From: a virus
Reading direction: 5' to 3' (one strand)
Length of the DNA: 64,000 bases
IMG/VR virus record: IMGVR_UViG_3300032282_001105
Span: 8,306-72,305 of that record
The position numbers and the translations under genes were made by a program. The stretch's first letter is position 1, and each line of letters opens with the position of its first letter. Under the pieces are notes generated by a model. That model searched no databases. It was not told the DNA's origin and saw nothing but the letters and a program-made list of their open reading frames with translations. This document shows, piece after piece, positions 1 through 63,346 of this stretch.

Positions 1-581
1 TCTTTACTTTTACGAATCATCTCTTTGATGATTTCGGCTTTCTCAGATAACAATGTAATACCCATTAATTGCTCAATGATATCTTTCTGGTCATTGCTTT
101 TTAATGCCAAGAATGGTTCACTGTAAGTATTCAATACGACAATGTGACGGAACATATCGGCTGACATATTGATAACTTTTTCAATTGCTGCCTGTGTTTC
201 TTTGTTCTCACCTTGTTGATCCTCAGAAGCTTTATCCTGAATATCATTTACATAGAATTTAAGAATGTTTGGCTTACGACCACGCTCAATCTTATAGTTT
301 GTACCATTGACATTGAACGTCAATGTAACCATCATACTTTTACCATTTGTACGATTAACTAAGTTATCTTTACGAATGTTATTAATGGGTGTACCAAACA
401 ATGCATAACTAAGACCCTGAATCAGGGTTGTCTTACCTGTACCATTACGAGCACCGTCACCTCCTAAGTCTAAGTTCTCACCTAGAATTAATGTTAAGTC
501 TTTCTTGTCAAAGTCTACTGCTTGTGTGACTGCACCGATACTTAAAAAATTGCGTAATGTAATGTCTTGTAATGTAATCAT
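1..581 (-). CDS. SbcC/Rad50-like recombination endonuclease ATPase subunit (T4 gp46-like), runs off the left edge
   Basis: Not in the ORF track. Manual translation from ATG at 581 gives MITLQDITLRNFLSIGAVTQAVDFDKKDLTLILGENLDLGGDGARNGTGKTT (NFLS motif plus Walker A). ATGA overlap with the stop of the gp47-like gene. Confidence 0.92.
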   Translation of the reverse strand, partial: MITLQDITLRNFLSIGAVTQAVDFDKKDLTLILGENLDLGGDGARNGTGKTTLIQGLSYALFGTPINNIRKDNLVNRTNGKSMMVTLTFNVNGTNYKIERGRKPNILKFYVNDIQDKASEDQQGENKETQAAIEKVINMSADMFRHIVVLNTYSEPFLALKSNDQKDIIEQLMGITLLSEKAEIIKEMIRKSK

Positions 582-1594
582 AAGTTGTTATAAATGTCCA
601 AAAGAATCTTCTTATCAAAATTATTTGATTCAATTGAGTTAATCTGGTCAATAATAATTTGGTCAACACTTTCGAACTTTAATCCGTCTGCTGTTTGACC
701 GTTCTCATTCATATCTGCCTTCATAGGTATCAATGCCATTTCTCTTAGTTTATGTTCTGGTATCCAAGTCTCACGCAAATAGTTAGCCTCTTCATATGAG
801 ATTTCAACATCAAGATGTACTCTAACATGGCTGTCAATCAATAGCAAGCCCTCAGGGTTTTCTAATATATCACTTAATTTGTGTACACGGAATACAGGCT
901 GTCTTGGCCAAGTATGAAATACAGGCTCACCGCCCCATTCTAATATCATCATACCACGTGCGTCATCACCTGCGTCAGCATAGTTATGTGGGAAAGCATT
1001 ACCAATATACCAAATGTTCTTACGTGCTTGTCGTTTATGAAAATGACCACTGAATACTTTCTCAAAGCCAGTCATATGGTCTTCGTTAATCTCACCGTGA
1101 TCGGGCATCTCAACCATAGCGTTCATATAGAATCTTGGAAGTTCAAAATGACCAAACATATATTTGCCACTCATCTTTTGTAGTTTCTTGTAATCATCTT
1201 GTACAAGCCATGGTGCAATAACTACATCTCCTTGTTGGAAGAAGTCGTTGATGATTTGTACGTTTGGTAGATGTTTAGCCCACTCAACGCTATGAATGTC
1301 CCTGCGGTCACGATAATAAAGATCGTGGTTGCCTGGGATAAAATATACAGTATCAAAGCTAGCATTTAATTTCTCCAGAGCCTGTAGCCCAAATTGTAAT
1401 GTATGAATGTTAATACTTGCACGATGATGATTATAATCGCCCAAAAAGAAACAGGTTTCACAATTCTCTTTCTTTGCTTTGGCTATAAACCAATCAACGA
1501 AATCAGAACAGTCTTGGTTATGTTGTAAGCTGTTTGACTTTAATCCAAAATGAATATCAGTGAACACAGCGGCTTTTTTGAAAAGGTTACTCAT
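578..1594 (-). CDS. SbcD/Mre11-like metallophosphoesterase recombination nuclease (T4 gp47-like)
   Basis: Motifs DIHFG, GDYNH, GNHD, GHF, SGHFH. Start moved to the ATG at 1594 (MSNLFKK) because the longer ORF overlaps the upstream gene and a promoter. Confidence 0.92.
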   Translation of the reverse strand: MSNLFKKAAVFTDIHFGLKSNSLQHNQDCSDFVDWFIAKAKKENCETCFFLGDYNHHRASINIHTLQFGLQALEKLNASFDTVYFIPGNHDLYYRDRRDIHSVEWAKHLPNVQIINDFFQQGDVVIAPWLVQDDYKKLQKMSGKYMFGHFELPRFYMNAMVEMPDHGEINEDHMTGFEKVFSGHFHKRQARKNIWYIGNAFPHNYADAGDDARGMMILEWGGEPVFHTWPRQPVFRVHKLSDILENPEGLLLIDSHVRVHLDVEISYEEANYLRETWIPEHKLREMALIPMKADMNENGQTADGLKFESVDQIIIDQINSIESNNFDKKILLDIYNNL

Positions 1595-1600
1595 TTGTTT

Positions 1601-1629
1601 ATTATATAAGAAAGCCGTCACATTAGCAA
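1601..1629 (-). promoter_or_regulatory. sigma70-type promoter TTGCTA-N17-TATAAT for the gp47-like gene
   Basis: Minus strand TTGCTA (1629-1624), 17 nt spacer, TATAAT (1606-1601). Same -35/-10 hexamers as the promoter at 2575-2603. Confidence 0.75.
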
Positions 1630-1636
1630 CGGCTTT
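1611..1636 (-). terminator. Inverted repeat, probable intrinsic terminator of the gp55-like gene
   Basis: AAAGCCGT-N10-ACGGCTTT directly after the stop at 1644, followed on the minus strand by CTTAT. Confidence 0.55.
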
Positions 1637-1643
1637 GGTTAAA

Positions 1644-2549
1644 TTATTCTTCGTACACAGTAGAACTAGTTCCAATGCCCTGTCGTGACCAACTAGGATT
1701 GAGACCATTGATTTCTAAAATATCATCACGTATGTTTTGATTTCGCTTCTCAGTATTCAATACACGGCAAAAGCTATTAGTTATAGCGGCTGTATAATAA
1801 GCGAATGGGTTAGCTGATTTTGCTTCATTGAAACGTAGACCAACATAGGTTAGTTGTAAGATAGCACTGTTACGCATTTCGTCATTATATGTATACCCAC
1901 GCCAATTATATTTCATTGCGTATTTTTCGCACATCATAATATACATACGGGCAAGTTTGTTTGTGATTTTACCATGATCTTTATTAAAGATACCTGTTTC
2001 CAAATCACCTTCCCAATGACTTTTACCCACACATTTGAATGTATTATTTGAATCTATTTTGTAATGTTGGAATGGGGGAAAGTTAACTTTAACGTGAACC
2101 ATATCGTCTACTTCTGCTTTTGTGGTATTATCTTCTAAGTCAGCAAATATTTCGTCTGGATCTGGTTCTTCAAAATCAAAGATATCCTTTGCTGTTTTCT
2201 TTTTAACTGTTTTACGTGGTTGTTTCGGGGCAACCGGAACGTGATCCCAAGTCATTACACGAAATACTAAATCTGTAATTTCTATGGAATCTGGGCTAAC
2301 TGCATCTTTACTACCTTGTTCTAAACTAAGACGTAGTGCTCGGGTTTCTTTTGCTTGCTGAATTGTTTCTTGTTTGAAAGCATATTCTAAACTGTCTTCC
2401 ATACTAGATTGAGGCATATCTACGATGAAGTCATATCTGTGATAACTTGGGTCTGTGAAGTAGCAATATGCGTTTTTGCTTTCGTGAATCTCTTTTAGAA
2501 TGTCTTTATTGTTTAGATAGTTGACAGGTTTGCGTGAGGGTAGGGACAT
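1644..2549 (-). CDS. Late-transcription sigma factor (T4 gp55-like)
   Basis: VNYLNNKDIL N-terminus and NWRGYTYNDEM...NPFAYYT...NSFCRVLNTEKR match recalled gp55 motifs. Adjacent to gp47/gp46 as in T4-like phages. Confidence 0.85.
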   Translation of the reverse strand: MSLPSRKPVNYLNNKDILKEIHESKNAYCYFTDPSYHRYDFIVDMPQSSMEDSLEYAFKQETIQQAKETRALRLSLEQGSKDAVSPDSIEITDLVFRVMTWDHVPVAPKQPRKTVKKKTAKDIFDFEEPDPDEIFADLEDNTTKAEVDDMVHVKVNFPPFQHYKIDSNNTFKCVGKSHWEGDLETGIFNKDHGKITNKLARMYIMMCEKYAMKYNWRGYTYNDEMRNSAILQLTYVGLRFNEAKSANPFAYYTAAITNSFCRVLNTEKRNQNIRDDILEINGLNPSWSRQGIGTSSTVYEE

Positions 2550-2574
2550 AGTTCTCCGTTATTATGTTGATGTA

Positions 2575-2603
2575 ATTATAGCATTATTGTTGCAGAATAG
2601 CAA
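2575..2603 (-). promoter_or_regulatory. sigma70-type promoter TTGCTA-N17-TATAAT with extended -10 TG
   Basis: Minus strand TTGCTA (2603-2598), 17 nt spacer ending in TGC, TATAAT (2580-2575). GGAG Shine-Dalgarno before the ATG at 2549. Confidence 0.8.
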
Positions 2604-2637
2604 CGATTTTGTGATGAAAAGGGTAAAAATACTAGTT

Positions 2638-2654
2638 TATTTAGTAGATAAATA
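2638..2654. promoter_or_regulatory. Back-to-back late promoter motifs (TATTTA-gtaga-TAAATA)
   Basis: TAAATA on both strands in the divergent intergenic region; resembles the T4 late promoter TATAAATA. Confidence 0.6.
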
Positions 2655-2676
2655 TAAGTAAGGATAACAACATATT

Positions 2677-4305
2677 ATGTCACAATATACGAGTACGCAA
2701 TCCACAGCAGGTGGGTTAGTTATTAATGCAGTATTAAATTCTGTAAATAATACAATAACTTACACAGCATCCGCCCCTAACGGTGCGACTGCAACCTATA
2801 CTGCACCTGCGGCAGAGGCTGGAAATTCTGTTACAATTGTTAATGCTCTACGAACACCTTTACGAAATCAAAATGTACCGGGTACCGTTTACAATGGAAT
2901 AGGCACTGCATTAGAGAGTGTACAAGTATCAACTACCCAGCAAGCAACTCAGGCACAAGTTACTGCTGTTGCTACAGGAAATCCTCCACCCGCAGAATCA
3001 GCGCCCATTCCAGTAGCAACAGCAAATAATCCAAACACAACACCTACTCCGTCTATTCCACCAGTAGAAAACGCAACAGCACCATCTACTGGACAAAATG
3101 CCGACGCAGCCTTCCAAGAAGCTAACGCATCACCACAACAACTTATCGACCCTAATAATGATCCTAATACTAATATTGGTGTAGAGGTACAAAATACAGG
3201 ATTTGAACCATTACAAGAACCTCCTATTACTAATGATGGAGATGAGTTTAGTGGGATAGATGAACAAGTACAAAGGCAAAAAGATTTAGAAGATGGGTCA
3301 CTAGAATTTGCTGGTATAGATGACCAAATAGCCGCAAATGAAAACGCATTGCAAGAACCACCACAGTTGACGGATGAAGAAATAGCACAACAGATACAAC
3401 AAGCAGGGCAGGGATCTGATACAGAAGAAAGTGTATTTGATCCTACCGGTAATGGTGGTGCACCTCAAGGTATATCAACTGCATTAAACAACACCCGTAG
3501 TACGGCAACAAAACAAGATAGTGCTAACTTTCAACAAAAGCCAGATTGGCGTGCAAGATTAAGTCTAGCACCAAACGCAAACTATTTGTACAAAGTACCA
3601 AAAGGACAAGCAGGTATATTAGCACCATTGCAAGCAACAGATGGAGTTATATTCCCGTATACACCTGGCATATCAGTAACATACAGTGCGGGTTATGACC
3701 CAAGTGAATTAATACACAGTAACTACAAAGTTTATCAATATAAAGGTAGTAGTGTAGATACAGTTTCAATAACCGGTGATTTTACTGCCCAAGATACTAA
3801 TGAAGCTAATTATATGTTAGCAGTAATACATTTCTTCCGTAGTGTCACAAAGATGTTTTATGGACAGGATCAGAACCCCAATAATGGTGTACCCCCACCG
3901 TTATGTTATTTAAGTGGGTTTGGAGCATATACTTTTGATGCTCATCCGTTAGTTGTAACTAACTTTACATATACTACACCGACTGATGTAGATTATATAC
4001 GTGCAGGTAGTCAGACTAATCAACCGGGTGTAAATGTAGCACAACAAAATAGTATAGTAAATAGCTTTGTACCAAGTGTACTACGAACTGCTATGAATGG
4101 CTTGGCTCCTAAATTACCAAACTTCTCAACACAGAACTCACTTATTAACTCTGATGCAACCTATGTACCTACAAAATTACAATTACAAATCACTTGTATA
4201 CCTATCGTTACTAGAAACGATATCAGTAACAAGTTCAGTCTCAAAGAATATGCGACTGGTGCATTATTACGAGGAAGTAAACGATCAGGTGGAGGTATTT
4301 GGTAA
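2677..4305 (+). CDS. Baseplate / tail-tube-initiator-like structural protein with low-complexity N-terminal half
   Basis: C-terminal domain GVIFPYTP...HSNY...FFRSVTKMFYG...PPP...DVDYI typical of large-myovirus baseplate tube-cap-like proteins. First gene of the baseplate operon. Confidence 0.65.
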   Translation: MSQYTSTQSTAGGLVINAVLNSVNNTITYTASAPNGATATYTAPAAEAGNSVTIVNALRTPLRNQNVPGTVYNGIGTALESVQVSTTQQATQAQVTAVATGNPPPAESAPIPVATANNPNTTPTPSIPPVENATAPSTGQNADAAFQEANASPQQLIDPNNDPNTNIGVEVQNTGFEPLQEPPITNDGDEFSGIDEQVQRQKDLEDGSLEFAGIDDQIAANENALQEPPQLTDEEIAQQIQQAGQGSDTEESVFDPTGNGGAPQGISTALNNTRSTATKQDSANFQQKPDWRARLSLAPNANYLYKVPKGQAGILAPLQATDGVIFPYTPGISVTYSAGYDPSELIHSNYKVYQYKGSSVDTVSITGDFTAQDTNEANYMLAVIHFFRSVTKMFYGQDQNPNNGVPPPLCYLSGFGAYTFDAHPLVVTNFTYTTPTDVDYIRAGSQTNQPGVNVAQQNSIVNSFVPSVLRTAMNGLAPKLPNFSTQNSLINSDATYVPTKLQLQITCIPIVTRNDISNKFSLKEYATGALLRGSKRSGGGIW

Positions 4306-4616
4306 TGTCTAATAATGCTTTATATCCAGCATCAAGTCCATATTTTGCTACCGGTGTAGTAAATGGTAGATTTTTAGATGTATTAGTAGATAGACCTATT
4401 CCTAAGTTAGGTAGTGATAGATATTGGGAAATCACAAACACATATAACTTACGTCCTGATATGCTAGCATATGACTTGTATAGTAATGCTAAGTTATGGT
4501 GGGTATTTGCAAGTAGGAATCCAAACACATTGAAAGATCCCTTCTTTGATTTTACTGCAGGTACAAGTATCTATTTACCTGAAGCTTCTACATTAAAACA
4601 AATATTAGGTTTATAA
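4305..4616 (+). CDS. LysM-like baseplate wedge protein (gp53-like)
   Basis: RPDMLAYDLYSNAKLWWVFASRN motif. TAATG coupling puts the start at 4305. Confidence 0.8.
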   Translation: MSNNALYPASSPYFATGVVNGRFLDVLVDRPIPKLGSDRYWEITNTYNLRPDMLAYDLYSNAKLWWVFASRNPNTLKDPFFDFTAGTSIYLPEASTLKQILGL

Positions 4617-7268
4617 ATGGCAATTGAAACAGATGAGCTAGGTAATATAATATCTTCTACGCCTGATAAAAATGATTTAGGCGGGACGGATGGTGACGGT
4701 GAATATAGTTATGATAAAGCTTATGCTGCCAACCTAACTACTAAAGAAAACAATGCTACTGCTACTGGTAGCAATGAGATGGAAACTCTCAATGAAAGTT
4801 ATGCTGGTCAAACTCAAACAGGTAAAGCACAGAAGCCTGCAGGCAATAGTGTAGTTGATAAAGGTGTTGGGAAATCAGCAAAGCCCGGATCACGCTTACA
4901 AAACCCATTAGGTAACTTTAGTAGTTATACATATCAATTAAGTTTGTATATGATTACACCTGATGCATATCAAGCATTTAATTTATCAGGCAGAAAAAAC
5001 ATTAACTCATTATCTGCTACAGACGCTAGCGGGCAAGCAACTAATGGTGGTGCATTTTTAGTTGCACAATCAGGTGGTATCAATAATAAAACAAGTCGCA
5101 GAGCACCCGGATTTGAGTTAGATTATTACATAGATGATTTAAAAATAAAATCAGCTATTAATGGTAAAAATACACAATCAACATCTAATGTTACTTCTTT
5201 ATCTTTTAGTATATATGAGCCATACGGCTTTTCATTTATTACTAAACTAAAACGAGCAAAAGAAGCTTTACAAAAAAATAGTAAAATAAAAAATTATGAT
5301 AAAGCAATGAATGCAAGTAAACAGTTTTTTGTTTTAGGTATTAGATTTCAAGGTTATGATAAGAATGGTAATATAGCAAATGCCAGCGAAGTATTTTCAG
5401 ATGATACACTAAACACCAGTCCAGATGCTAGTGGTGTATATGAAAGATTTTATGATATTTTATTTACTGGAATGAAATTCAAAATCAACGGTGGTGCTAC
5501 TACTTATAATATAACAGCTAATGTTATTGCAACTAATGTTGCTTTAGGTACGGCACGAGGAATGATAGATAATAATATTCCAGTTGTTGCTGGAAATGTC
5601 AAAGAAGCATTAGACGGTGATGGTGATGGTATAACTAGTATATTGAAAACAGTAAATGAAACACAAAAAGCACTATTCGATCAAAAAGCAATAGAGATAC
5701 CTAATGTTTATAAAGTTAGATTTTTAGGAGATACAGACCTTATTCAGAATGCAAGTCTTGTAAGTAAAGCTGACCCAGACAAAGCTAAACTGCCTATGAG
5801 TCGGGCAGATAACTTGGGTGAAGTAAATGAAAAAACTAGTGTTAATGCGGTTCCTGATAATACAAAAAGATTGATAACTATAAAAAAAGATACGCCTATA
5901 ACTCAAGCTATCAATAGTATTATAAAACAGAGCACATATATGGAAGATGCTCTCAAAGTAATAGTAGTGGCAAGCACCGAGCCAGATGGTGATACTAATA
6001 GTCCTGAAGTAGTTACTAAAAAAGATGTTCCACCTGTTAAGTGGTATAACTTAAGTACAGAAGTTAAATGTTTAGGATTTGATACTAAAGTAGGTGACTT
6101 TGCATACGAGATAACATATGTTATTCAACCATATGAAACTCCTGCAGCCGCATCACCTTATACAAAATCTAGTAAGTACTATGGTCCGCATAAACGATAT
6201 GAGTATTGGTTTACTGGTAAGAATAGTGAAATACTATCTTACGAACAAACAATGGATAATACTTATTTCAATGTAACGTTGAATAAAGCAGGTGATCCTG
6301 CAAGTCAAGGCGGAGGAACTGATTCTCCTGTATATGCGGGCAAGAAACAAAACCAAGAAAGTACAGGTAGATTGGATACTGGTATGGAAGCGCAAAATGC
6401 GTATATGACTAGTTTGTTTGATCCCGGAGCGTATGCCAAAGCTAAAATTAGTATATTAGGAGATCCTGATTATCTTACACAAGAAACACCAAGTAGTATT
6501 AATGATGTTTACAGACAGTTTTACAAAAGTGACGGGTTCACTATCAATCCAAATGGTGGACACGTGTTTATTGAAATAGATTTTAAAGAGGCAGTAGACT
6601 ATAAAAATAGTGACGGTTTAATGGATATCAACTCATCAATATACTTTTGGAACTATCCACCAGCAGTAGCTAATAAAATCAAAGGTGTAAGTTATATGGT
6701 ATTAGAAATAGAACACACCTTTAAGGGCGGCAAATTTGAACAAACATTGAACTGTACCATCAATACATTCCCAGGAGTATTGGGTACACCAGCAGAAGCA
6801 CTTGGTGGCAGAGCAAATGCAACAAATGCAACAGGTGCAAGAACCGGAGTTGCATTAACGGCAGAAACAGCAAATACTGCACGTTCAGCCTTTGCAGCCA
6901 ATGATCCTAGAAGAATTGACCTATCAAGTTCAGATGTACGCACTAGCACTAGCGAGGGCGGTGATGGCCCAACACCAAGTAGTGGTAGTAGTACATCTTC
7001 ATCCTCTGGTTTTATGCAAGATGATGCAACTGGTGTAGATGCGGCAATAGCGTTACAACAGTTACCGGATAATATGGAACTTTTCTATAGCAGTACACCA
7101 ATACCAACAACAACAGAAAATACAGCACAAGGTGTTGCAAATGATGATAGTGTACAAACTGCAGGACAAACACAAAATGGTGTTGCTAACTCACAAAGCC
7201 CGGACGCAGGCAGAGAAACAGAAAACACTACATTACTTACTGGTTCAAGACCAGGTGAAGGTGCATAA
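4617..7268 (+). CDS. Probable baseplate hub protein
   Basis: NPLGNFSSYTYQLSL N-terminal motif, late ISILGDP and IEHTFKGGKFEQTL motifs (hub/gpD-like). Lies between the LysM and gp5-like genes. Confidence 0.6.
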   Translation: MAIETDELGNIISSTPDKNDLGGTDGDGEYSYDKAYAANLTTKENNATATGSNEMETLNESYAGQTQTGKAQKPAGNSVVDKGVGKSAKPGSRLQNPLGNFSSYTYQLSLYMITPDAYQAFNLSGRKNINSLSATDASGQATNGGAFLVAQSGGINNKTSRRAPGFELDYYIDDLKIKSAINGKNTQSTSNVTSLSFSIYEPYGFSFITKLKRAKEALQKNSKIKNYDKAMNASKQFFVLGIRFQGYDKNGNIANASEVFSDDTLNTSPDASGVYERFYDILFTGMKFKINGGATTYNITANVIATNVALGTARGMIDNNIPVVAGNVKEALDGDGDGITSILKTVNETQKALFDQKAIEIPNVYKVRFLGDTDLIQNASLVSKADPDKAKLPMSRADNLGEVNEKTSVNAVPDNTKRLITIKKDTPITQAINSIIKQSTYMEDALKVIVVASTEPDGDTNSPEVVTKKDVPPVKWYNLSTEVKCLGFDTKVGDFAYEITYVIQPYETPAAASPYTKSSKYYGPHKRYEYWFTGKNSEILSYEQTMDNTYFNVTLNKAGDPASQGGGTDSPVYAGKKQNQESTGRLDTGMEAQNAYMTSLFDPGAYAKAKISILGDPDYLTQETPSSINDVYRQFYKSDGFTINPNGGHVFIEIDFKEAVDYKNSDGLMDINSSIYFWNYPPAVANKIKGVSYMVLEIEHTFKGGKFEQTLNCTINTFPGVLGTPAEALGGRANATNATGARTGVALTAETANTARSAFAANDPRRIDLSSSDVRTSTSEGGDGPTPSSGSSTSSSSGFMQDDATGVDAAIALQQLPDNMELFYSSTPIPTTTENTAQGVANDDSVQTAGQTQNGVANSQSPDAGRETENTTLLTGSRPGEGA

Positions 7269-10200
7269 TGGCAAATAATATCTTTAAACCAAAAGGCGCA
7301 ACAAGCTCAGGTAAATTAGGAGCCGGGGGAGCAGTCGTTAGTCCTGTACCAGTATTCGGCGTAGTAAAAGATAATATCGACCCTATTCGTTCAGGTCGAT
7401 TAAGAGTTTATATCAGTGACATGGGAGGTACAGACCCTGATGACAGTAACAGTTGGGTTACTGTAAGTTATATGACACCTTTCTATGGTCTGACTGAAGG
7501 CACTGGTGATAAGACAGGCTATGGGACATATCTACAAAACCCTGTTAGTTATGGTATGTGGTCAAGCCCACCTGACATTGGTACAACTGTTATTTGTATA
7601 TTCATAAATGGTGATACTAACTATGGATATTGGATTGGATGTGTGCCAGAACCAGAAGCATTGTATATGGTGCCTGCAAACGGGTCAACTGAAACAGCAG
7701 TTCTTAATGCTAGTGAATCAAACAGTTACGGTGGTGCAAAAAAGTTACCAGTAACTAATATCAATACAAATAATAATGAAATCAATGAGAGTGCTACATT
7801 TTTTAATGAACCCAAACCAGTCAACAGTTATCTTGCAGGTGTATTAAATCAGCAGGGATTAATTAGAGATACAATTAGGGGTACGATTGGTACAAGTGCT
7901 CAACGTGAAAGTCCTAGTCGTGTTGGTTGGGGCGTCAATACTCCGGGTAGACCTATCTATGAAGGTGGCTTTACAGATGAAACAATTGCAGATGCCGCAA
8001 CTGGTTCAGGTCAACAGAGCAGTTTAAAAATAACTTCACGCAGGGTTGGTCATAGTATTGTAATGGATGATGGTGACTTACTTGGTAGAGACCAATTAGT
8101 AAGATTGCGTAGTAGTTTAGGACATCAAATATTAATGAGTGATGATGGGCAATGTTTATTCATCATTCACGCTAACGGACAAAGTTGGGTTGAGTTAGGT
8201 AAAGAAGGTACAATTGATATGTACGCTACTAACTCAGTAAATATTAGAACACAGGGTGATTTAAACTTACACGCTGATAACAATATTAATATGCACGCCA
8301 AGAAAGATTTTAATCTTTATGGTGAAAATGTAACAATTAATAGTGATAAGAAAACTGATTTTAGAATAGGTACTGATTACAGCATACAATCATTAGGTAA
8401 GTATACACTAAAAGTTGGCGCAGGTATGAGTCTATCATCTGCAGGAGAAGCAAGTGTTGCTAGTTCTGCGGCTACATTTATTAATGGTAGTAAAGTTAAT
8501 TTGAATACCGGTAGTGCTGGACTTGTACCAGCAGATGTTAAACCATTAACAACCATAGCACATACCGATACACTATATGACCCAACAAAAGGTTGGGCGG
8601 CAGCACCAAGTGCTTTATTAAGTATTACAAGTCGAGCACCTGCACACAGTCCTTGGAATAGTGCAAATCAAGGGGTAGATGTTAAAGTAGATAACAATGC
8701 AAGTGCAAACTTCCCAAGTGCTCCTGCACCAGCAGTAGCTACTGCAAATGCGTCAGTACCCGGAACACCACCTGTACCAGTTACAGCGGCAGCGGCAGCG
8801 ACTGTACCAGTTACTGGTGCGATTAGTAAAGCAGTTCCAGCAATACCGACAGCGGCATTGGTAAGCCAAACTGCGGCAACAGCCGCATCAGGTATAGCTA
8901 AAGATGCAGTAGCTAAAGGTGCAGGAGTAGTACAGACAGCAACCGGAGCTGTAGGCTCGGTAGGCAAGCTAGCACAAAGTCCAGAACAAATGGAGGCAGC
9001 CGGTATATTAAAATCTGGATCAGCAGTATTAATTGCATCACTAATTTCTCAAGGAAAAACTATTGAAGAAGCAATGACTGACAACTTGTTTACAGGTATG
9101 CCAGGAGCAGAGAATTTACAAGCCTATATAGCTAGTACTACTTCTCAAGTTAAAGCACAGGTTGCCAACTTCCAACAAGCACAAACTAAACTTACACAAG
9201 CCGGAGTTATTACCGGTAATGAAGATGCTAGTCAAATTACAGGAGCGATTAATGCAGTAAGTGGTGTAGGGATAGACGCCACTGTTGATTTAATAAAAAC
9301 TGCATCTAATGGAAATGGATTTGGTGTATCAGGTGTTGTGAGTACGGCAGTAGGAGCTACAAATAAAGTATTAGGCGATGTAAAATCATTAGTATCATCT
9401 GGTAACTATGCCGCAAATATGGCTACTAAAATGACCGGAGGGCTTACTTCATTAACAACGTCATTAGATGGATTGAAGAAAACAATAGGCGGAGGTGTAG
9501 CAGGGCTATTAGATAGTGCAAAAGGAATTGCCGCTGGAGCATTTGCCGCAATAACAAAAGGCTTCCCGTCTTTAAAAGCTGGCGTCCCTCAAAACTTAAA
9601 ACAGATTGCTGATAAAGCAACAAATGATATCCAATCAGCTGGAACAAATGCAAGCGATGTGGCAAGTATAGTTAAATCAGCCGCATCAGCTTCAGGAATA
9701 GATGTTGCGGCTATAGCTTCAGGTAAAGCATCGTCAGCTATCAATGGTTTAGATAGTATTAACACAGCAGTGGCTACGGCTGTAGGATCTACTACAAATG
9801 TAGTAACTGCATTGGAAAATGCAGAAAGTGCAGTTAGTGCAACATTACCCGCAAGCGTTGCAAGTGGCTTGAACAATTTGCCAGGCGCACAAAATGCAGT
9901 ATCAACTGTAATTAAGGGTGGAGTTTCCGCAGTTAATTTAGTGCCCGGAGTAACCGGTATTAAGAATTCAATAAAAGATATTACAGCATCAGTCACTACT
10001 GGAAGCGGTGCAGCCAATGCATTAGTTAATCAATTAAAACAACCTGGAATATCACTATTTCAAAAAGCAAGTCTTGGATTGAGTCCAGCCGCACTTACTT
10101 TATTAGAAAACTCTATAGCACAAATAAGCTCAGAGGGCGGAACACAAATTAAACCACCAACAGTTGGAACTAGTACGGATAACACTAGACCTGCTTTAGC

Positions 10201-10510: not shown

Positions 10511-10513
10511 ATA
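10506..10513 (+). promoter_or_regulatory. T4-type late promoter TATAAATA
   Basis: Exact T4 late consensus 16 nt upstream of the gp25-like ATG. Confidence 0.65.
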
Positions 10514-10529
10514 TAGTATAGGATAAAAT

Positions 10530-10979: not shown

Positions 10980-11027
10980 CAAAAACCGTAGTTTTCATTT
11001 AAGATAAATACTTAAAAGAGAATAACT

Positions 11028-14399: not shown

Positions 14400-14425
14400 G
14401 TATATATAACAACTAGAGAGTTATA

Positions 14426-32364: not shown

Positions 32365-32396
32365 GATAAATAAAAGAGACCCCGGAGTAATTAAAC

Positions 32397-33953: not shown

Positions 33954-33962
33954 GGAAAAGAA

Positions 33963-34913: not shown

Positions 34914-34937
34914 TTTTTTGACATCTTGGTATCCATC

Positions 34938-34943
34938 TAAATA
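34938..34943 (+). promoter_or_regulatory. Late promoter motif TAAATA at the head of the modification island
   Basis: CTAAATA followed by AGGAG RBS and the ATG at 34961; same motif precedes the structural genes. Confidence 0.55.
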
Positions 34944-34960
34944 CTCTTAGGAGAACATAG

Positions 34961-40266: not shown

Positions 40267-40267
40267 A

Positions 40268-41722: not shown

Positions 41723-41734
41723 CAAGAGAAAATT

Positions 41735-52580: not shown

Positions 52581-52584
52581 TTAA

Positions 52585-55633: not shown

Positions 55634-55665
55634 TTACATACTTATAAAAAACGCTAAGTAATTGT

Positions 55666-58600
55666 ATGCTAAGAGATGTATTTTATTTCGGAGAAAAACC
55701 CAACGTTCACCCTAGAGAAAGATATGCAATAGATTTAGCCGACGCTAAACGACAATGCACTACTGAACATTTTTGGGTAATTAACGACCATTGCAATTAT
55801 AAAGATTTTGATTGGGACTGGGATTTTGATTTCCTACCTGATGAAGATGTATGGGCAGAAGACCATAACAATGTATGGCCTAGTCCTTATCAGAAAGATA
55901 GTGGCACTTGGCTTTGTTCAACTAATATAGATGCATTAACTATATATAGGGGAGATGTTGATCCTATTCCACTAAAAGATGAGATTGTATCAAATTGGAA
56001 AATCATCGAATATATTGAAAAAGATAAATTTGATTTCAAATGGCATCCAGACCCAACTGACCCACCTTACATATATGTATTCGGTAATGAATGGTATCCT
56101 GCTACTGTTATGCCAACAGTAGAATATCACGTTCCGGGCGCAACAGAACGTAAATACACAACAGACCAGATAGCGCAGTTATTGCCTATGCCAATGCTGT
56201 TTAATATTATACACGAACCTGAGCATTTTGATTATAGTTGGAGACCTGATCCTACTAGTCCCCCATACATATATGTGTTTGGTAATAATCAATATCCTGC
56301 GAGTGTGATGCCGACTGTTGAATTTCACGTTGAAGGTGCAACAGAGCGTAAGTACATTGAAAATATAGTTCCTAAATTAGCGGCAAAACCAGATTCATTC
56401 GAGTTCTTAGAAGATATTGATCCGTCATCCTTTGATATGTCTTGGGTACCAGATCCAACTAGTCCACCTTATATCTATGTATGGGGTAATCAATGGAATA
56501 AGCCTGAGTTTAAAATTAGTGTGCAACATAAAGTTGAAGGTGCAACTGAATATAAGTATATGGAACCACGTGTGAAGCGTAAATCCTGTATGGACAATTG
56601 GGATATACCTCCTAATATGTTTCAAAATACATTTGACTTTAGTTGGGAACCTGATCTATCTAAATATGACCCTCCATTCATTTATCAATTTGGATCACAG
56701 TGGCAGAAGACAGGCGGCCCTCGATATGTAGTGCCCGGTGCAACAGAAATAAAATATATTGATACATTAAAAGCAAATGTTGTTTGTACAGAATTTCAAA
56801 ATTGGCAAGTGCCCCGCAATATTGACCAAACTAAGTTTGACTTTAGCTGGCATCCAGATAGTACTGAAGAACCTTATATCTATCAGTTCCCGGATCAATG
56901 GACTAGAACAGGCGGCCCTCGATATGTAGTGCCCGATGCAACAGAAATAAAATATATTAATGTACAAATAGCAACAGCAAAACAAGATAAAACTCATTGG
57001 ACAATACCAGAGGGTATTGATACAACTGACTTTGACTTTAGTTGGCACCCCGATATTGAACACGAACCTTTAATATATCAATTTGGTACTCAGTGGCAGA
57101 AGACAGGTGGCCCTAAGTTCTATGCTGTGGGTTGTACAGAATCTAGTGATATTAAATACGTTGATGTTACTAAAGCAAAAGCAATTGCCAATATGAATAA
57201 TTGGGTAATACCTGAAGATTTAGATATTGATACGTTTGATTTTAGTTGGCATCCTGATAGCACTGAAGAACCTTATATCTATCAATTTGCCGATCAATGG
57301 ACACGTACCGGCGGACCTAAATACGTAGTTGATAGTGCTATAGAAATAAAATATATTGACACAGTAAAAGGTATAACTAAAGCAAATAAAAAACACTGGA
57401 CGATACCTAAAGGTATCGATACTACTGACTTTGACTTCAGTTGGCATCCTGATATTGATCATGAACCTTTAATATATCAATTTGGTACACAATGGCAACG
57501 CACCGGCGGCCCGACTTATAATACATTAGGTACTGATGAAAATAGTGATATTGCATACGTAGATATTATTAAAGCTAAAGCATTACCCAATACAACCAAT
57601 TGGCAAACATTAATCCCTGTAACAGGGTTTGATTATAGTTGGCATCCTGACAGTACAGAAGAACCCTTCATTTATGTATTTGGCAATCAATGGAATAGGG
57701 GTGAACTTGAAGCTACTTTGATTTATACAGTGCCCGGAGCGACACAAACAAAATATATTAATGATATTGTTCGTGTTGCACCATATACATCTGGGTGGTC
57801 TACCCTAGTTGACATTGAAGATTTTGACTATAGTTGGAGACCTGACCCAACTAGTCCGCCTTACGTATATGTATTTGGTAATAAACAATATAGCGGTGTA
57901 ATTATGCCTACTGTAAAGTTGACTATACCCGATGCAACTGATAACAAGTATGTAGATGATGTTGTAGCTACTATAGCGCAGAAGCCAGCTCTTTTCACAG
58001 ATACATCATTAATTAAAGATTTTGACTATAGTTGGAGACCTGATCCAACTAGCCCACCTTACATATATCAATTTGGTACACAGTGGGCAAAAACAAATGG
58101 TCCTAAGTTTGTAGTAGAAGGCGCAGAAGAAACTAAGTTTGTTAGTGAACCACTTGCTACTATCTTACCAGATATGACGCATTGGGAAATACCTGAAAAT
58201 GCAGATGTAACTAAGTTTGACTTTAGTTGGCATCCTGATATGACTAGTCCACCATACATATATCAATTTGGTACACTACTTGATGATAAAGATGGCCCTA
58301 GATATATCACACCTGGACACAATGATGTTGTTGTTAACTTAGAACGTAAAGAGATTATACTTGAAGAACTAGTATTTCCTAAGTACCAGTTAAAAACTAC
58401 GTTAGAAGATTTGATTGAAGAACATACAGGTGAAATCTTTTGGGCATTGAATCCAGATTTAGATTACTCTGATTTTGATTTTATGTGGGTACCCGACAAA
58501 CAAAACGTATATCACGTTAATGCGTTCGGTAGTAAAGATAATATAAACTCACAAACTTATTTTGTTAACGGTAAGATGTGGCAAAAAGGTTATAGAGATA

Positions 58601-60369
58601 TCAATTACGTTGAAGATAAAATCGTTGAAGTTCGTACCAAACTTGATATGTTTTTCATAGATAAAGGTAATAGTGAATCACAAGATAGATTCCAAGAACT
58701 GCGTTTGAGATTTCCTAACATTACTAAAACAAGATACCTAAACAGTTGGGTAGATACTATTAATCGTTGTATTACTAAATCAAGTACTAATCTGTGCTGG
58801 ATACTAAACAGTGAATTAGATTATAGTGAATTTGAATTTGACTTCTACCCCAGCCCTTGGCAAATGAGAATGGTACACGTTTTTGGCACTCAATGGAGTC
58901 ACTGGGGAACTACATTTATGGTTAATAAAAATAGTTTCAGCGAGGATACAAAATATGTTAAAATCATTGAACACCTTAGCAATCTAAACTTTGTTAAACG
59001 TAATACTGCCAAAGCTACAAATTGTTTATATGATATCGCTCTTATAGATCACGGCAATACTGAAATTGAAAATGTAAGTGAAATTATTAAAAACAAAACA
59101 GGACGTAATACTACTACTGTTAAGTACAATAGAAGCTATTTACAGACTTTTAAGACGTTGTTAAAAGACATTCAGCCTAAGAAAGAACATTATCTTTGGG
59201 TTTGTTCTAGTATATGTGATTATGAATATTTTGACTTTAGTTACATTTGTGATCCATATGCTAGAGACCAGCTTCACGTTTTTCCTAGCGATAAACAGAA
59301 GTTTGGAGACACGTTTTTAATTGATGTTAACAAATTTAAATTATTAATTGATGATATGATTATGTTAGAAGATTATGAGAAAGTTAACTATAATCAACAT
59401 CAAAGAGTTAAGCGATTACCTGCACCAACTATTATTACGAAAGAAGATACCCATGTCACTAATATTCATACTGATTATAATTGGCCTTATGCTACGTTTA
59501 TCACGGAAAACGACAAAGACATTCAAGTAACTGATGTTGAACCTATGAGTTTATGGACTCCTGATAGTAAGAATATCATTATTACTAGTACGGGAGCAAC
59601 TCGCATCATTGTGCCAAAAGAGGCAAAGTATTATGTTGAACACGAATTATATGATTATCCATACATCAGTCGCTCTAACAAACTTGTACAATCTCAGCCG
59701 CTGGATATAGTCTTCCTAAGCAACGGTGAAACTGGAGCTGACGAGAACTACAAACACTTACTGAAAGTGACTAAGGGATTGAAAAACAGAGTTGTTAGAG
59801 TAGACGGTGTTGACGGTCGTGTTCAAGCATATCACGCAGCCGCTGAAGCAAGTAATACTCCTTGGATGTTTACTGTGTTTGCTAAATTAAGAGTCAATAA
59901 TAAATTTGATTGGAGTTGGCAACCTGATAGATTGCAAATACCTAAACATTATATTTTTAATGCTACTAACCCTGTAAATGGTTTAGTGTATGGTCACCAA
60001 GCTATGATTGCTTATAATAAGACTATAACACTTGCTAATAAAGGTAGAGGTCTTGACTTCACATTGGATGATGAACACGAAGTAGTTGATATGAACAGTG
60101 GTGTAGCAATGTATAACACCGATGAGTGGAGTACATGGCGCACAGCATTTAGAGAAGCATTGAAGTTACGTGCAAGCGATAGCCAAGATAGTAGAGACAG
60201 ATTAGATAATTGGTTAAACGTAGGCGAAGGTGCATTTGCCAACTATAGTACTGATGGTGCTAATCACGCAATCGAATACTATAATGAAGTTAACGGCGAC
60301 CTAGATAAATTACGTTTAAGTTACGATTGGCCTTGGTTAAAAGAATATTACAAGAAAAAATACAAATAA
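55666..60369 (+). CDS. 1567-aa protein with tandem ~65-aa FDxSWxPD repeats and C-terminal GT-A-like domain(s)
   Basis: Repeats are visible in the translation. The C-terminus aligns by eye with the 37143-38096 product. Confidence 0.75.
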   Translation: MLRDVFYFGEKPNVHPRERYAIDLADAKRQCTTEHFWVINDHCNYKDFDWDWDFDFLPDEDVWAEDHNNVWPSPYQKDSGTWLCSTNIDALTIYRGDVDPIPLKDEIVSNWKIIEYIEKDKFDFKWHPDPTDPPYIYVFGNEWYPATVMPTVEYHVPGATERKYTTDQIAQLLPMPMLFNIIHEPEHFDYSWRPDPTSPPYIYVFGNNQYPASVMPTVEFHVEGATERKYIENIVPKLAAKPDSFEFLEDIDPSSFDMSWVPDPTSPPYIYVWGNQWNKPEFKISVQHKVEGATEYKYMEPRVKRKSCMDNWDIPPNMFQNTFDFSWEPDLSKYDPPFIYQFGSQWQKTGGPRYVVPGATEIKYIDTLKANVVCTEFQNWQVPRNIDQTKFDFSWHPDSTEEPYIYQFPDQWTRTGGPRYVVPDATEIKYINVQIATAKQDKTHWTIPEGIDTTDFDFSWHPDIEHEPLIYQFGTQWQKTGGPKFYAVGCTESSDIKYVDVTKAKAIANMNNWVIPEDLDIDTFDFSWHPDSTEEPYIYQFADQWTRTGGPKYVVDSAIEIKYIDTVKGITKANKKHWTIPKGIDTTDFDFSWHPDIDHEPLIYQFGTQWQRTGGPTYNTLGTDENSDIAYVDIIKAKALPNTTNWQTLIPVTGFDYSWHPDSTEEPFIYVFGNQWNRGELEATLIYTVPGATQTKYINDIVRVAPYTSGWSTLVDIEDFDYSWRPDPTSPPYVYVFGNKQYSGVIMPTVKLTIPDATDNKYVDDVVATIAQKPALFTDTSLIKDFDYSWRPDPTSPPYIYQFGTQWAKTNGPKFVVEGAEETKFVSEPLATILPDMTHWEIPENADVTKFDFSWHPDMTSPPYIYQFGTLLDDKDGPRYITPGHNDVVVNLERKEIILEELVFPKYQLKTTLEDLIEEHTGEIFWALNPDLDYSDFDFMWVPDKQNVYHVNAFGSKDNINSQTYFVNGKMWQKGYRDINYVEDKIVEVRTKLDMFFIDKGNSESQDRFQELRLRFPNITKTRYLNSWVDTINRCITKSSTNLCWILNSELDYSEFEFDFYPSPWQMRMVHVFGTQWSHWGTTFMVNKNSFSEDTKYVKIIEHLSNLNFVKRNTAKATNCLYDIALIDHGNTEIENVSEIIKNKTGRNTTTVKYNRSYLQTFKTLLKDIQPKKEHYLWVCSSICDYEYFDFSYICDPYARDQLHVFPSDKQKFGDTFLIDVNKFKLLIDDMIMLEDYEKVNYNQHQRVKRLPAPTIITKEDTHVTNIHTDYNWPYATFITENDKDIQVTDVEPMSLWTPDSKNIIITSTGATRIIVPKEAKYYVEHELYDYPYISRSNKLVQSQPLDIVFLSNGETGADENYKHLLKVTKGLKNRVVRVDGVDGRVQAYHAAAEASNTPWMFTVFAKLRVNNKFDWSWQPDRLQIPKHYIFNATNPVNGLVYGHQAMIAYNKTITLANKGRGLDFTLDDEHEVVDMNSGVAMYNTDEWSTWRTAFREALKLRASDSQDSRDRLDNWLNVGEGAFANYSTDGANHAIEYYNEVNGDLDKLRLSYDWPWLKEYYKKKYK
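56030..58310 (+). repeat. Twelve well-conserved intragenic tandem repeats (~200 bp unit)
   Basis: FD[FY]SW[HR]PD...P[YFL]IY[QV]FG...[GD]ATE.KY recurs 12 times. 56710-56760 and 56908-56958 match at 50 of 51 nt. Confidence 0.85.
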
Positions 60370-61269
60370 ATGAAAAATATTTTAGTAATAGGCGGCAGTG
60401 GCTATATAGGAAATAGATTAGTTAATCACTTAAGTGAAAAATTTAATTGTCACACAGTAGACCTTAATTGGTTTGGTGGTCCTACTAGTACTTTCACACA
60501 AGATTATTCTACACTAACACCAGACCTGTTAGGTATCTATAGTCACGTAATATTGTTAGCTGGTCACAGTAGTATGGCTATGTGTGAATACAATTGGCAA
60601 GGTGCTTGGCAAAACAATATTGTGAATTTAGCAAGTTTAATAGGTAAACTAAACAAAAACCAAGTATTGATTTATGCTAGTAGCGGATCAGTATACGGCA
60701 ACGGTGGGTTGAATCGTACAGAAAATATGAGTCTTGCTTCTGCATTAGTTGAATATGATTTAACTAAACAGATAGGTGAACAAATAGCAACAGGTGCTGT
60801 ATGTAAAACAGTAGGATTAAGATTTGGTACGCTAAGTGGGTTCGCTAATTATGCAAGAAATGATTTAATGTTAAATGCAATGGTAATTAGTGCCAAGACT
60901 AAAAACAAGATTGAATGCTTTAATGGGCATAATCATAGAAGCATATTGGGAATCAATGATTGTGTTCGTGCTATAGAATCAATAATTAGTCAAAGTGAAT
61001 TATTGGAACAACACGATATTTTTAATCTTGCTAGTTTTAACGGAACTGTTGAAAATTTTGTTGACATATCTAGTAAATTGCTTGATGTTCCTGTTATTAA
61101 ACACGAAAAAATAACTAACACCTTTAGTTTTGAGCTAAATTGTAATAAGTTCATTCATAAATTTAACTTTTCTTTTACCGATACCCCAAACTCAATTATT
61201 AACAGTTTGGTTGAAAAATATGAATCTATTGAATGGAGTCCCAGAATTAAGAAAGTTTTATATGTATGA
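60370..61269 (+). CDS. NAD-dependent epimerase/dehydratase/reductase (extended SDR)
   Basis: GGSGYIG, YASSGSVYG, YDLTK (YxxxK), LRFGT. Confidence 0.9.
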   Translation: MKNILVIGGSGYIGNRLVNHLSEKFNCHTVDLNWFGGPTSTFTQDYSTLTPDLLGIYSHVILLAGHSSMAMCEYNWQGAWQNNIVNLASLIGKLNKNQVLIYASSGSVYGNGGLNRTENMSLASALVEYDLTKQIGEQIATGAVCKTVGLRFGTLSGFANYARNDLMLNAMVISAKTKNKIECFNGHNHRSILGINDCVRAIESIISQSELLEQHDIFNLASFNGTVENFVDISSKLLDVPVIKHEKITNTFSFELNCNKFIHKFNFSFTDTPNSIINSLVEKYESIEWSPRIKKVLYV

Positions 61270-62443
61270 GTCTTTAACACGCTGTCTTTGTTGTGATAAT
61301 TCACAACTTTTTACCATATTAGATTTAAATACGCAACCACCCGCTAATAGTTTTCATAACCCAAATGAAAATATACCTGAGTATGAATTAAAATTAATGG
61401 GTTGTGATAACTGCTGGCACACACAGTTAAGTGTAGCAGTTGACCCAGATGAATTATTTAAAAATTATTTATATGTTAGTGGGACCAGTAGCACGTTAAA
61501 ACAATACTTTGACAGATTTGCAGTACGTTATACAGATGTACCTGGTAAGGTTTTAGATATTGCGTGTAATGATGGAACACAGTTAGATAGTTTTGCTGAA
61601 TTAGGGTGGGACACATATGGCGTAGACCCTGCAGAAAATCTATTTAGTAGTAGTACTAGCAAAGAACATCAGGTTAAATGTGATTTTTGGAACATTAATT
61701 CTGCCATCGATATGCCTGTATTTGATTTAATTACGGCACAAAATGTATTTGCTCATACTGCAAAAATATCAGAATTTTTAGAAGCTTGTAAATTAGTAAT
61801 GAATAATAATTCAAAATTAGTTATACAAACTAGTCAGGCATTGATGTTTGATAGGAATGAATTTGATACAATATACCACGAACATATTAGTTTTTTCAGT
61901 ACACTAAGTATGAAAACTATTGCAGAAAGACAAGGGTTGTATTTAAACAATGTGTATACAACTGATATACACGGTACTAGTTATGTATTTGAATTGTCTA
62001 AAGTTTCCAATGAACAACCTTCTGTTGAAAAACAATTAGAACTAGAACAGCATAGATATAAAAGAAGTTTTTATGATAGCTATCAAAAAAATGCAATGAC
62101 TTGTTTAAAGTCTTTGAAAGACTATATTAGTGTGCAACGTTCTTCTGGTAAAAAAGTGATAGGGTACGGAGCTGCCGCAAAAGGAATGACTGTTATTAAT
62201 GCAGGAAATCTATCATTTGATTATATTGTAGATGACAACCCATTAAAACAAGGTTTGTTATGTCCGGGTAGTAATATACCAGTCTATGGCCCTCAACAAT
62301 TAGATACAGAGAATTCTGATATAATTATTATACCATTAGCTTGGAATTTTTTTGATGAAATTAAATCTAAAGTAAAACAATTAAGACCAAATAAAGCTGA
62401 TACTTATGTAAGATATTTTCCTGAATTAAGATTCGACTTTTAA
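61262..62443 (+). CDS. NDP-sugar C-methyltransferase (TcaB9/TylCIII/NovU family)
   Basis: Zn-binding CLCC...CDNC, YLYVSGTS, VLDIACNDG, FDTIYHEH, GYGAAAKG, PLAWNF. Start likely the Met at 61262. Confidence 0.88.
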   Translation: MYESLTRCLCCDNSQLFTILDLNTQPPANSFHNPNENIPEYELKLMGCDNCWHTQLSVAVDPDELFKNYLYVSGTSSTLKQYFDRFAVRYTDVPGKVLDIACNDGTQLDSFAELGWDTYGVDPAENLFSSSTSKEHQVKCDFWNINSAIDMPVFDLITAQNVFAHTAKISEFLEACKLVMNNNSKLVIQTSQALMFDRNEFDTIYHEHISFFSTLSMKTIAERQGLYLNNVYTTDIHGTSYVFELSKVSNEQPSVEKQLELEQHRYKRSFYDSYQKNAMTCLKSLKDYISVQRSSGKKVIGYGAAAKGMTVINAGNLSFDYIVDDNPLKQGLLCPGSNIPVYGPQQLDTENSDIIIIPLAWNFFDEIKSKVKQLRPNKADTYVRYFPELRFDF

Positions 62444-63346
62444 TAGTTCTGGATATTGTGTGAAGAATCTATCAATTTCATACTGAGTAGCGTAAGGTGG
62501 ATATCCAAACTGAGTCCATCTACTAGGATCATATGGTAATCGTTTAATAGTTCCATCAGGGTTAGCTACTTGGTCATAGTACGGTTTATTGAAATCGTAC
62601 CAAGAAGAATGACTATTCATTTTTTTATTTAATGTTGCATCTATGTTTGCACTAGCGTGATGAATTTTTAAATGAAATTTACCATCACTTTTAATATTAA
62701 ACGTTTCTATATTTACACCTATTATTTTATTATACGAATAGAATTGTGATTGTTGTGATTGAATATTTAAAAGATATGGAATATTAATGTGGCTAAATTT
62801 ATTGGTATATTTTAAATATATCATAAATTCAAAATCATCAAAGTGAGTAACAACATAGTTGTCATCAAAGTAACAATCTTTTTCATACATTGCTTGAGGA
62901 TTGAATCCTACTAAATTACCTAAATTATGTAAATCGTGTTTGAACACATCCATTGGTTCAGGTCTATTCCAAAAGTTCCATAGTTGTTGTGGCCAACATC
63001 CGAATGTTGTTGATCCATAATGTTTTGCAAAATCACTAGTTATAATTAACGGTGTAGCATTATCCATTTCAACATCAGCTTGCATTAAAACAGCATGGTC
63101 TAGGCCCATCTTTTGTGCTACTTTAAATATCCAATTATATCCACCAGCAGATCCTATATTATATTCACTGGCATAGTAAATCATATCATTAACCTTACAC
63201 CAATATTTCATTAGAGGTTGGTTACCATTGTCTAACACAACAAATTTAATATTATTGGTTTTGAAATGCTCCTGTACAAATTTTACAGGATAAAATTGCC
63301 ACCATAATAGTTGTTCGTTATAGGTTAATAAAAATACATAAATCAT
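62426..63346 (-). CDS. GT2-like glycosyltransferase
   Basis: VFLLTYN, VVLDNG, NIGSAGGYN, MQADVE, FDDNY...FDDFEF. TAAATA on the minus strand at 63359-63354. Confidence 0.7.
   Translation of the reverse strand: MIYVFLLTYNEQLLWWQFYPVKFVQEHFKTNNIKFVVLDNGNQPLMKYWCKVNDMIYYASEYNIGSAGGYNWIFKVAQKMGLDHAVLMQADVEMDNATPLIITSDFAKHYGSTTFGCWPQQLWNFWNRPEPMDVFKHDLHNLGNLVGFNPQAMYEKDCYFDDNYVVTHFDDFEFMIYLKYTNKFSHINIPYLLNIQSQQSQFYSYNKIIGVNIETFNIKSDGKFHLKIHHASANIDATLNKKMNSHSSWYDFNKPYYDQVANPDGTIKRLPYDPSRWTQFGYPPYATQYEIDRFFTQYPELLKVES

Follow-up and report, generated by a model that had tools for sequence, protein, structure and literature searches.

Restriction-type palindromes are spared next to GG/CC steps in a freshwater myophage lineage: a probable phage-borne DNA mark and a candidate DpdA-like enzyme in its relatives

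Phages that encode DpdA, an enzyme with the fold of the tRNA-guanine transglycosylases (TGT), replace part of their guanines after replication at a motif of two to three nucleotides and thereby shield overlapping restriction sites (PMC7544227, PMC10484667, PMC10516641 and PMC12028318, each drawn on here in part). In CAjan, preQ0 at GA and GGC protects against EcoRV and HaeIII, whereas enzymes with sites free of these motifs are not blocked (from the available part of PMC7544227); the motif of iggy is GA, and the Schizotequatrovirus system relies on DpdA2. In the genus of KVP40, FolE, QueD, QueE, QueC and DpdA form a core cluster, and 15% of the deoxyguanosine of phage 6E351A is dPreQ1 (PMC12028318, in the sections available). 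The DNA considered here is a stretch of 64,000 nucleotides (the window; bases 8306-72305 of a 72,305-bp contig without terminal repeat, IMG/VR record IMGVR_UViG_3300032282_001105), in which short palindromes ending in G or C are retained almost exclusively where a neighbour doubles the end base into GG or CC. The resemblance to the DpdA systems extends to close relatives of the window, in which a predicted TGT-fold protein of 513 amino acids is encoded beside FolE, QueD and QueE. It differs from them in that the motif would be GG/CC and that the 513-residue family escapes the Pfam TGT model and is a remote relative of KVP40.0122 (E 3.7e-5).

The footprint also invites comparison with the classical avoidance of short palindromes by lytic phages, in which words of 4-6 bp are likewise lost by synonymous choice and the sets of words vary among lineages. 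Here, in contrast, the loss depends on the flanks, and one class of sites stands at or above expectation. The Mom system of phage Mu modifies a fraction of one base in a specific context and blocks many restriction enzymes; unlike the mark considered here it acts on adenine and in another context, and no search for a Mom homologue was made.

Expected numbers of each word come from 500 shuffles of synonymous codons among positions of the same amino acid in the 46 called genes (23,666 codons) of the whole contig, used in place of maximum-order Markov k-mer statistics; ratios below are observed over expected, and a site is called flanked when its end base is doubled into GG or CC. The preliminary description of the window, made by eye, had claimed that CATG and GCWGC (W, A or T) survive almost only in overlap with CC or GG. 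Exact counting recovered every site that it had listed: of 19 CATG in the window, 16 are CCATG or CATGG and the other three are the exceptions it had named, while all 26 GCWGC are GGCWGC or GCWGCC. The first of these exceptions is constrained because the start codon that it contains overlaps the upstream stop. The codon choices that it had described are equally real. Histidine before G is written CAC 74 times and CAT 10 times, against overall usage of 213 CAT and 136 CAC; threonine before TG is ACA in just 4 of 37 cases, and the first codon of alanine pairs is GCC or GCG in 53 of 77.

Over the whole contig, CATG occurs 24 times where 162 are expected. Unflanked sites number 4 (mean of the shuffles 86.3, lowest shuffle 67), sites with one flank 17 (63.1) and sites with both 3 (12.3). 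GCWGC occurs 38 times against 101 expected, with no unflanked site (mean 75.3, lowest shuffle 60), 34 with one flank (24.0) and 4 with both (1.7). The exemption is complete for GCWGC but only partial for CATG, whose flanked sites (20/75) are still depleted about 3.7-fold. The loss at constant amino acids and codon usage is that of restriction-site avoidance.

When the count was extended to all palindromes of 4, 5 and 6 bp, at least six more restriction-type words proved to share the exemption, namely GATC (unflanked 27/109, flanked 116/101), CGCG (0/22, 8/11), GCGC (9/28, 21/25), CGWCG (0/17, 3/7), CAGCTG (0/12.8, 2/7) and CTGCAG (0/15.2, 13/9.1). In the contig, every strongly purged palindrome that starts with G or C is rescued through doubling of its end base. 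Doubling into AA or TT gives no rescue of purged words that start with A or T (AGATCT 0/12.4, TGATCA 1/21.8, ACATGT 0/15.6, TTCGAA 4/15.2, TCTAGA 3/16.3), and flanking bases that do not double the end do not rescue either, GCATG and CGCWGC being absent from the contig. No convincing preference for a third base beyond CC was found; the excess of GCWGCCG and GATCCG arises from recoding of Ala-Ala to GCC-GCN. With palindromic flanks, NGATCN (TGATCA, AGATCT, CGATCG) stands at 1/38 in the contig, and unflanked GATC with asymmetric flanks at 26/71, which suggests separate 6-bp enzymes on top of a GATC enzyme.

How far the protection reaches was examined by pooling the contig with 45 loci of its relatives (46 sources) and classing sites by the nearest flanking GG/CC. 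Where this step overlaps the end base, sites stand at 0.44-1.68 of expectation. Where it merely abuts the site, the ratios are 0.51 for CGCG, 0.36 for CTGCAG, 0.72 for CAGCTG, 0.50 for CGWCG and 1.08 for GATC, and GCWGC is at 0/34. With one base or more between, CGCG, CTGCAG, CAGCTG and GCWGC show no rescue or a slight one (0-0.14), and with no GG/CC nearby they are at 0/152, 0/148, 1/108 and 1/332, respectively. CGWCG fades more slowly (3/5.3, or 0.56, with CC one base away and 0.12-0.18 at two bases), and GATC, which is purged only in part (baseline 0.18), retains 0.49-0.51 with GG/CC one base off. Hexamers ending in A or T are barely rescued by an abutting GG/CC (AGATCT 1/20.7, AGCGCT 2/15.8). 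The rule on the whole extends no more than a single base past the site, and one flank suffices for sparing, which is what a base modification within or adjoining the recognised pairs would yield.

The relatives were drawn from IMG/VR, where 119 stretches gave 80 loci that were kept and 45 of at least 8 kb in which the flank rule was analysed; their contigs reach 171-264 kb at an estimated completeness of 45-69%. The set of purged words varies among these related lineages, as it does under restriction avoidance. The purge of CATG is confined to part of the closest group, that of GCWGC affects the 92% and 82% groups and some of the 77% group, and nearly all relatives purge CGCG, CGWCG, CAGCTG and CTGCAG. 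Wherever a word is purged, the flank rule is kept. In the 70-74% group, the most distant one, for example, unflanked and flanked sites stand at 8/105 and 68/66.5 for CGCG, 9/71.5 and 44/42 for CGWCG, and 1/119 and 60/86 for CTGCAG. Words that are not purged show no flank bias (GCWGC 681/716 and 186/172; CATG 170/170 and 202/181), and these ratios near 1 speak clearly, as an internal control, against a codon artefact.

The same rule is obeyed by three cultured phages. Purged words starting with G are at 140/214 when flanked and 0/467 when unflanked in HTVC008M (NC_020484), where GATC alone is at 83/130 and 0/205; the corresponding figures are 48/108 and 0/219 in KVP40 (NC_005083) and 27/60 and 0/109 in Aeh1. 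Words starting with C are weakly rescued in HTVC008M (22/99) and Aeh1 (28/108) but not in KVP40 (3/92). RaK2 (flanked 1/79), the T4-like cyanophage S-PM2 (flanked 13/65 and 0/65) and ICP1 do not follow the rule; all three purge words ending in G or C without rescue. Nor is it seen in three podophages of the Pelagibacter strain that is host to HTVC008M. They purge GATC and GANTC without rescue, flanked GATC being at 0/36 in HTVC011P and 0/32 in HTVC019P. Since phages of the same host show no rescue, the exemption in the Pelagibacter system can be ascribed neither to the restriction enzymes themselves nor to a host-made mark.

A covalent mark borne by the phage at GG/CC is the likely source of this pattern. 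The preliminary description had proposed a phage-made modification in CC or GG context, and the existence of such a mark is favoured by the shared exemption, its conservation in the clade, the behaviour of unpurged words and the phages of a common host. The description had left the base open, and G, as a 7-deazaguanine, now appears more likely than C. In the scheme that we propose, many type II restriction systems would select on the phage, whose genome would lose their target words by synonymous recoding, and a covalent mark of the phage's own making would sit on the GG/CC steps of its DNA. A site with a terminal G:C pair within a marked step, or sometimes abutting one, would become uncuttable, hence invisible to selection, and would persist. 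FolE, QueD and QueE would build a 7-deazaguanine precursor from GTP and, after replication, a DpdA-like enzyme would swap the G of 5'-GG-3' for a 7-deazaguanine derivative. The C7 substituent of the latter, lying in the major groove, would block enzymes that read this pair and, for some of them, the neighbouring pair too. Further tailoring is hinted at by adjacent genes for a methyltransferase-like protein, a nucleotidyltransferase, a kinase and a glycosyltransferase.

Within the GG step, the sparing in KVP40 points to the 3' G, because it is limited to sites whose end G follows another G; all 18 GTCGAC sites of this phage are GGTCGAC or GTCGACC. The 3' G of GG makes up 13.7% of the G of KVP40, close to the 15% dPreQ1 of its congener (PMC12028318, in the part consulted). 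In the window, the predicted share of replaced G would be 18% with one G per GG and 33% with both.

The preliminary description had called for a search for methyltransferase, TET or dpd genes elsewhere in the genome. Neither a standard methyltransferase nor a TET gene was found in the records of five relatives, but a dpd-type set is present in close relatives, although not on the 72-kb contig. FolE (E 5e-63) and QueD (E 6e-16; phrog_2389, 3e-43) occur in three of five large relatives (G003, G004 and G005), together with a QueE-like gene (phrog_2076, E 2e-53). A few kilobases upstream of these genes, an open reading frame (ORF) of 513 amino acids adjoins the gene for a B-family DNA polymerase. 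It has no Pfam or PHROG match, and the Pfam TGT model found nothing in the records of the five relatives, but this model also misses KVP40, which has a DpdA2 according to the literature. The family comprises 6,670 close homologues at E <=1e-3 and 844 cluster representatives. The ORF has an invariant GDSGGFQ motif, a TGT hallmark, and the Atlas points from it to TGT-like viral proteins. Its AlphaFold (AF2) model has a mean pLDDT (predicted local distance difference test) of 90.2, and the top 50 Foldseek matches in the PDB are all tRNA-guanine transglycosylases (probability 1.00, E ~2e-6). Neither phmmer nor a family profile found a TGT among PDB sequences, the fold search alone having done so. 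The predicted TGT (DpdA-like) fold is nevertheless one in which we are confident. A search for a CxCxxC...H zinc-site pattern gave no match, KVP40 included, and a scan for loci of the distant family member P0338 returned none.

The DpdA-like gene was found in G003, G005 and G010 and in a set of 80 loci. In loci with at least 9.5 kb of downstream sequence it is followed by FolE in 30 of 30, by QueD in 29 of 30 and by QueE in 25 of 30, and in many DpdA-like loci (48 of 80 loci analysed) the purge of GCWGC and the flank rule go together. Outside the clade, the family profile matches one ORF only, KVP40.0122 (E 3.7e-5), and nothing in HTVC008M, Aeh1, S-PM2, RaK2, ICP1 or the podophages. KVP40.0122 is probably the DpdA2 of KVP40, judging from this match and its neighbours, and published accession lists may already name it so; in the tblastn comparison, KVP40 also shares FolE and QueE with the relatives. 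Two other ORFs near FolE were considered as transglycosylases and rejected. One, of 275 amino acids, proved to be Rossmann methyltransferase-like; tblastn found it in G003 but not in G004 or G005, and from its position it could tailor the deazaguanine base. The other, of 395 amino acids, is a glycosyltransferase. It is extremely conserved, with thousands of metagenome proteins, of which the best 120 listed are 84-100% identical.

As to the lineage of the window itself, neither its own contig nor G001, a contig of the 92% group, extends into this region. The collinearity of G001 with G003 runs to about 204 kb, where G001 stops, about 10 kb before the position of the DpdA-like gene in G003. The larger record G010 (524,565 bp) encodes an 806-amino-acid protein identical to that of G001 and a baseplate wedge gene 85% identical in nucleotides to that of the window, and it carries the block of DpdA-like, FolE and QueE genes in two non-identical inverted copies, at 23-32 kb and 497-508 kb. 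From these matches G010 may place the cluster in the nearest sampled lineage of the window, in a record that is possibly mis-joined.

That the mark is a deazaguanine placed by the 513-residue enzyme is evenly balanced, since a number of observations weigh against it. The cluster is absent from the window's contig, from G001 and G002 and from four other fragments, and five more records, all fragmentary, gave no match to the family profile. G010, although scored 100% complete, could have arisen by fold-back or by the joining of two related genomes. Only a weak N-terminal match represents QueC (E 6e-6 to 9e-3; 1.4e-7), and the TM-scores of the Foldseek matches are moderate (0.31-0.56). HTVC008M and Aeh1 obey the rule with no match to FolE, QueE or the DpdA family. 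Among 2,120 ORFs compared by tblastn, none is common to the three cultured phages that obey the rule and absent from six that do not. Genes of a biosynthetic island of the window have homologues in phages that bear the rule, a carbamoyltransferase in HTVC008M and radical S-adenosylmethionine (SAM) proteins in KVP40, and none in the negatives. The footprint itself also holds discordant details. CCWGG and GGWCC remain at about 0.55 of expectation despite containing GG/CC; CCGATC is fully spared (25/23) and CCGCWGC is gone (0/35). In the clade, sites starting with G and with C are both rescued, so that one modified position would be insufficient unless a neighbouring mark also blocks cutting.

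Several of these observations would fit a GG/CC shield that is a new DNA mark, or protection of a non-covalent kind. It would be shared by many aquatic myophages, among them HTVC008M and Aeh1, and in this clade the island may build it. We regard this as unlikely, although it has a better claim than the alternatives that follow. It is improbable, for instance, that one mechanism unrelated to deazaguanine serves the clade, HTVC008M, KVP40 and Aeh1 alike and that the DpdA-like cluster is coincidental. The absence of FolE, QueE and DpdA-family ORFs from HTVC008M and Aeh1 speaks for such a mechanism. Against it, the tblastn comparison gave no gene common to all three cultured positives and absent from the negatives; the rule moreover differs in detail, KVP40 sparing G-starting sites only and the clade and Aeh1 both kinds, which fits different enzymes. 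Phages with a DpdA but no pathway of their own, using host preQ0, are in addition known (PMC6884629, in the part available). In HTVC008M, a cluster at 125-133 kb encodes a glycosyltransferase, a methyltransferase, a carbamoyltransferase, an 'NAD synthetase' (PP-loop), a UDP-glucose dehydrogenase and a 2-oxoglutarate-Fe(II) oxygenase; this cluster may supply the phage with a GG/CC shield of its own.

A cytosine mark on the 5' C of CC (methyl, hydroxymethyl-derived, carbamoylated or glycosylated), made by an enzyme that may come from the 28-kb island, also seems doubtful. The sequence by itself cannot assign the modified base to G or C, and a mark on the first C of CC, such as that of M.CviPII (CCD), the short-motif cytosine methyltransferase of chlorella viruses, would give the same footprint. 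However, no C5, N4/N6, D12, Dam-type or N6 methyltransferase was found in the records of the five relatives (33-69% complete), where PF00145, PF01555, PF02086, PF05869 and PF02384 all remained empty; PF12851 (Tet_JBP) found nothing there either, but it gave no signal in any control genome. Scans of the contig's ORFs with Pfam and PHROG brought up methyltransferases of the small-molecule type only. The thymidylate-synthase homologue carries a PFNIASY motif, presumably that of canonical thymidylate synthases, with no sign of a dCMP hydroxymethylase. Rho values of 1.01-1.04 show no depletion of GG/CC as expected from deamination of 5-methylcytosine. In favour of a cytosine mark, the family of the window's carbamoyltransferase, shared with HTVC008M (E 3e-40), includes a phage enzyme that carbamoylates 5-hydroxymethylcytosine in DNA; according to the available part of the same report (PMC8670742), this enzyme has no sequence-context preference. 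The island itself resembles one for sugar or virion tailoring. Two further explanations can be set aside. A phosphorothioate at the CpC step is rejected by argument only, since the majority of the enzymes in question cut within the site and not at its edge, and type IV methylation-dependent restriction (RmC/CmC) would predict an opposite or different flank rule.

It is very improbable that no phage modification exists and that host enzymes fail intrinsically at flanked sites, or that the host marks GG/CC. Longer degenerate sites had been raised in the preliminary description as an alternative. Yet at least eight unrelated words share the exemption, one flank suffices, unlike for an asymmetric longer site, and the podophages of a common strain purge GATC and GANTC, and RaK2, ICP1 and S-PM2 purge words ending in G or C, without rescue. 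An artefact of codon-pair or mutational bias unrelated to restriction is all but excluded: recoding of Ala-Ala explains some enrichment of GCCGC and GCWGCCG, but the null preserves amino acids and codon usage, the affected words are palindromes known as restriction sites, the purged sets differ by lineage, the flank bias is gone at unpurged words, and both strands and both flanks behave alike. Very-short-patch repair making CC fares no better, the gain of flanked sites (25 to 38) being far below the loss of unflanked ones (76 to 0).

The gene set of the window is that of a large myophage, with T4-type baseplate proteins, a gp55-like late sigma factor, SbcCD and one ORF of 5,717 codons. Its baseplate wedge protein shares 33% identity with its counterparts in RaK2-like and other jumbo phages. 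A blastn search of one stretch of the window against a phage collection gave no match. The DNA of the window occurs in public runs, 22 of them listed and all available as assembled contigs, that come from freshwater and lake metagenomes in 8 studies. The island of about 28 kb (38701-51861, 53511-55007, 60370-62443) encodes radical SAM proteins, the carbamoyltransferase, a nucleotide-sugar epimerase and a sugar C-methyltransferase. Weak homologues of its radical SAM genes lie beside a QueC-like gene in KVP40, and a tie of the array to the footprint is putative. The SAM methyltransferase-like gene just upstream would, from its profile matches, be a rival candidate only for making the mark. The contig is also short of TAAATA (83 against 154 expected) and AAGGA (56 against 120), which probably reflects the avoidance within genes of late-promoter-like and Shine-Dalgarno-like words. 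The positions of the features discussed are compiled in Table 1.

Table 1. Positions of the footprint, of individual sites and of candidate genes. Coordinates are those of the window unless another record is given.
Feature	Position	Strand	Basis or remark
Genome-wide footprint, palindromes ending in G or C kept nearly only with GG/CC	1..64000	.	Codon shuffles
Spared site, GCTGC followed by C (GCWGCC)	187..192	+	Exact count
CCATGG, CATG with both flanks	1208..1213	+	Exact count
Spared site, G before GCAGC (GGCWGC)	8599..8604	+	Exact count
Unflanked CATG	44465..44468	+	Contains the start codon (ATG) of the ORF at 44466, which shares bases with the preceding stop (ATGA)
Unflanked CATG, exception	45426..45429	+	Exact count
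Unflanked CATG, exception	57460..57463	+	Exact count
Class I SAM methyltransferase-like gene, 203 amino acids	38093..38704	+	Methyltransf_25, E 1.6e-6; phrog_3820 'DNA methyltransferase', E 8e-4
Ten consecutive radical SAM/SPASM genes	38701..51861	+	Pfam/PHROG scans
NodU/Nol-like carbamoyltransferase	53511..55007	+	HTVC008M homologue, tblastn E 3e-40; rival candidate only
KVP40.0122, unannotated ORF of 459 amino acids, between folE and a QueF-like gene	NC_005083 71308-72687 (L213:5309-6688)		Profile match
Rossmann methyltransferase-like ORF, 275 amino acids, between QueD and QueE	L174:3692-4519 (G003 223692-224519)		
Glycosyltransferase, 395 amino acids, just upstream of FolE	L173:18095-19282 (G003 218095-219282)		

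In the part of the deazaguanine and DNA-modification literature that was searched, neither a GG/CC motif nor the 513-residue DpdA-like family was found, nor was the use of flank-conditional site avoidance as a readout of a modification motif, and the literature consulted in part on the genus of KVP40 states no motif for its DpdA2. The footprint predicts, from sequence alone, which restriction sites are resisted, down to the dinucleotide. It provides a likely target motif, GG, for an unstudied DpdA-like family that spans more than 6,000 metagenome protein clusters and comes from freshwater giant phages of a very abundant group, and a candidate motif for the DpdA2 of KVP40-type vibriophages. Cultured phages and ordinary enzymes would suffice for a bench test of the prediction and, if deazaguanine should prove wrong for HTVC008M and Aeh1, a second GG/CC mark awaits discovery.

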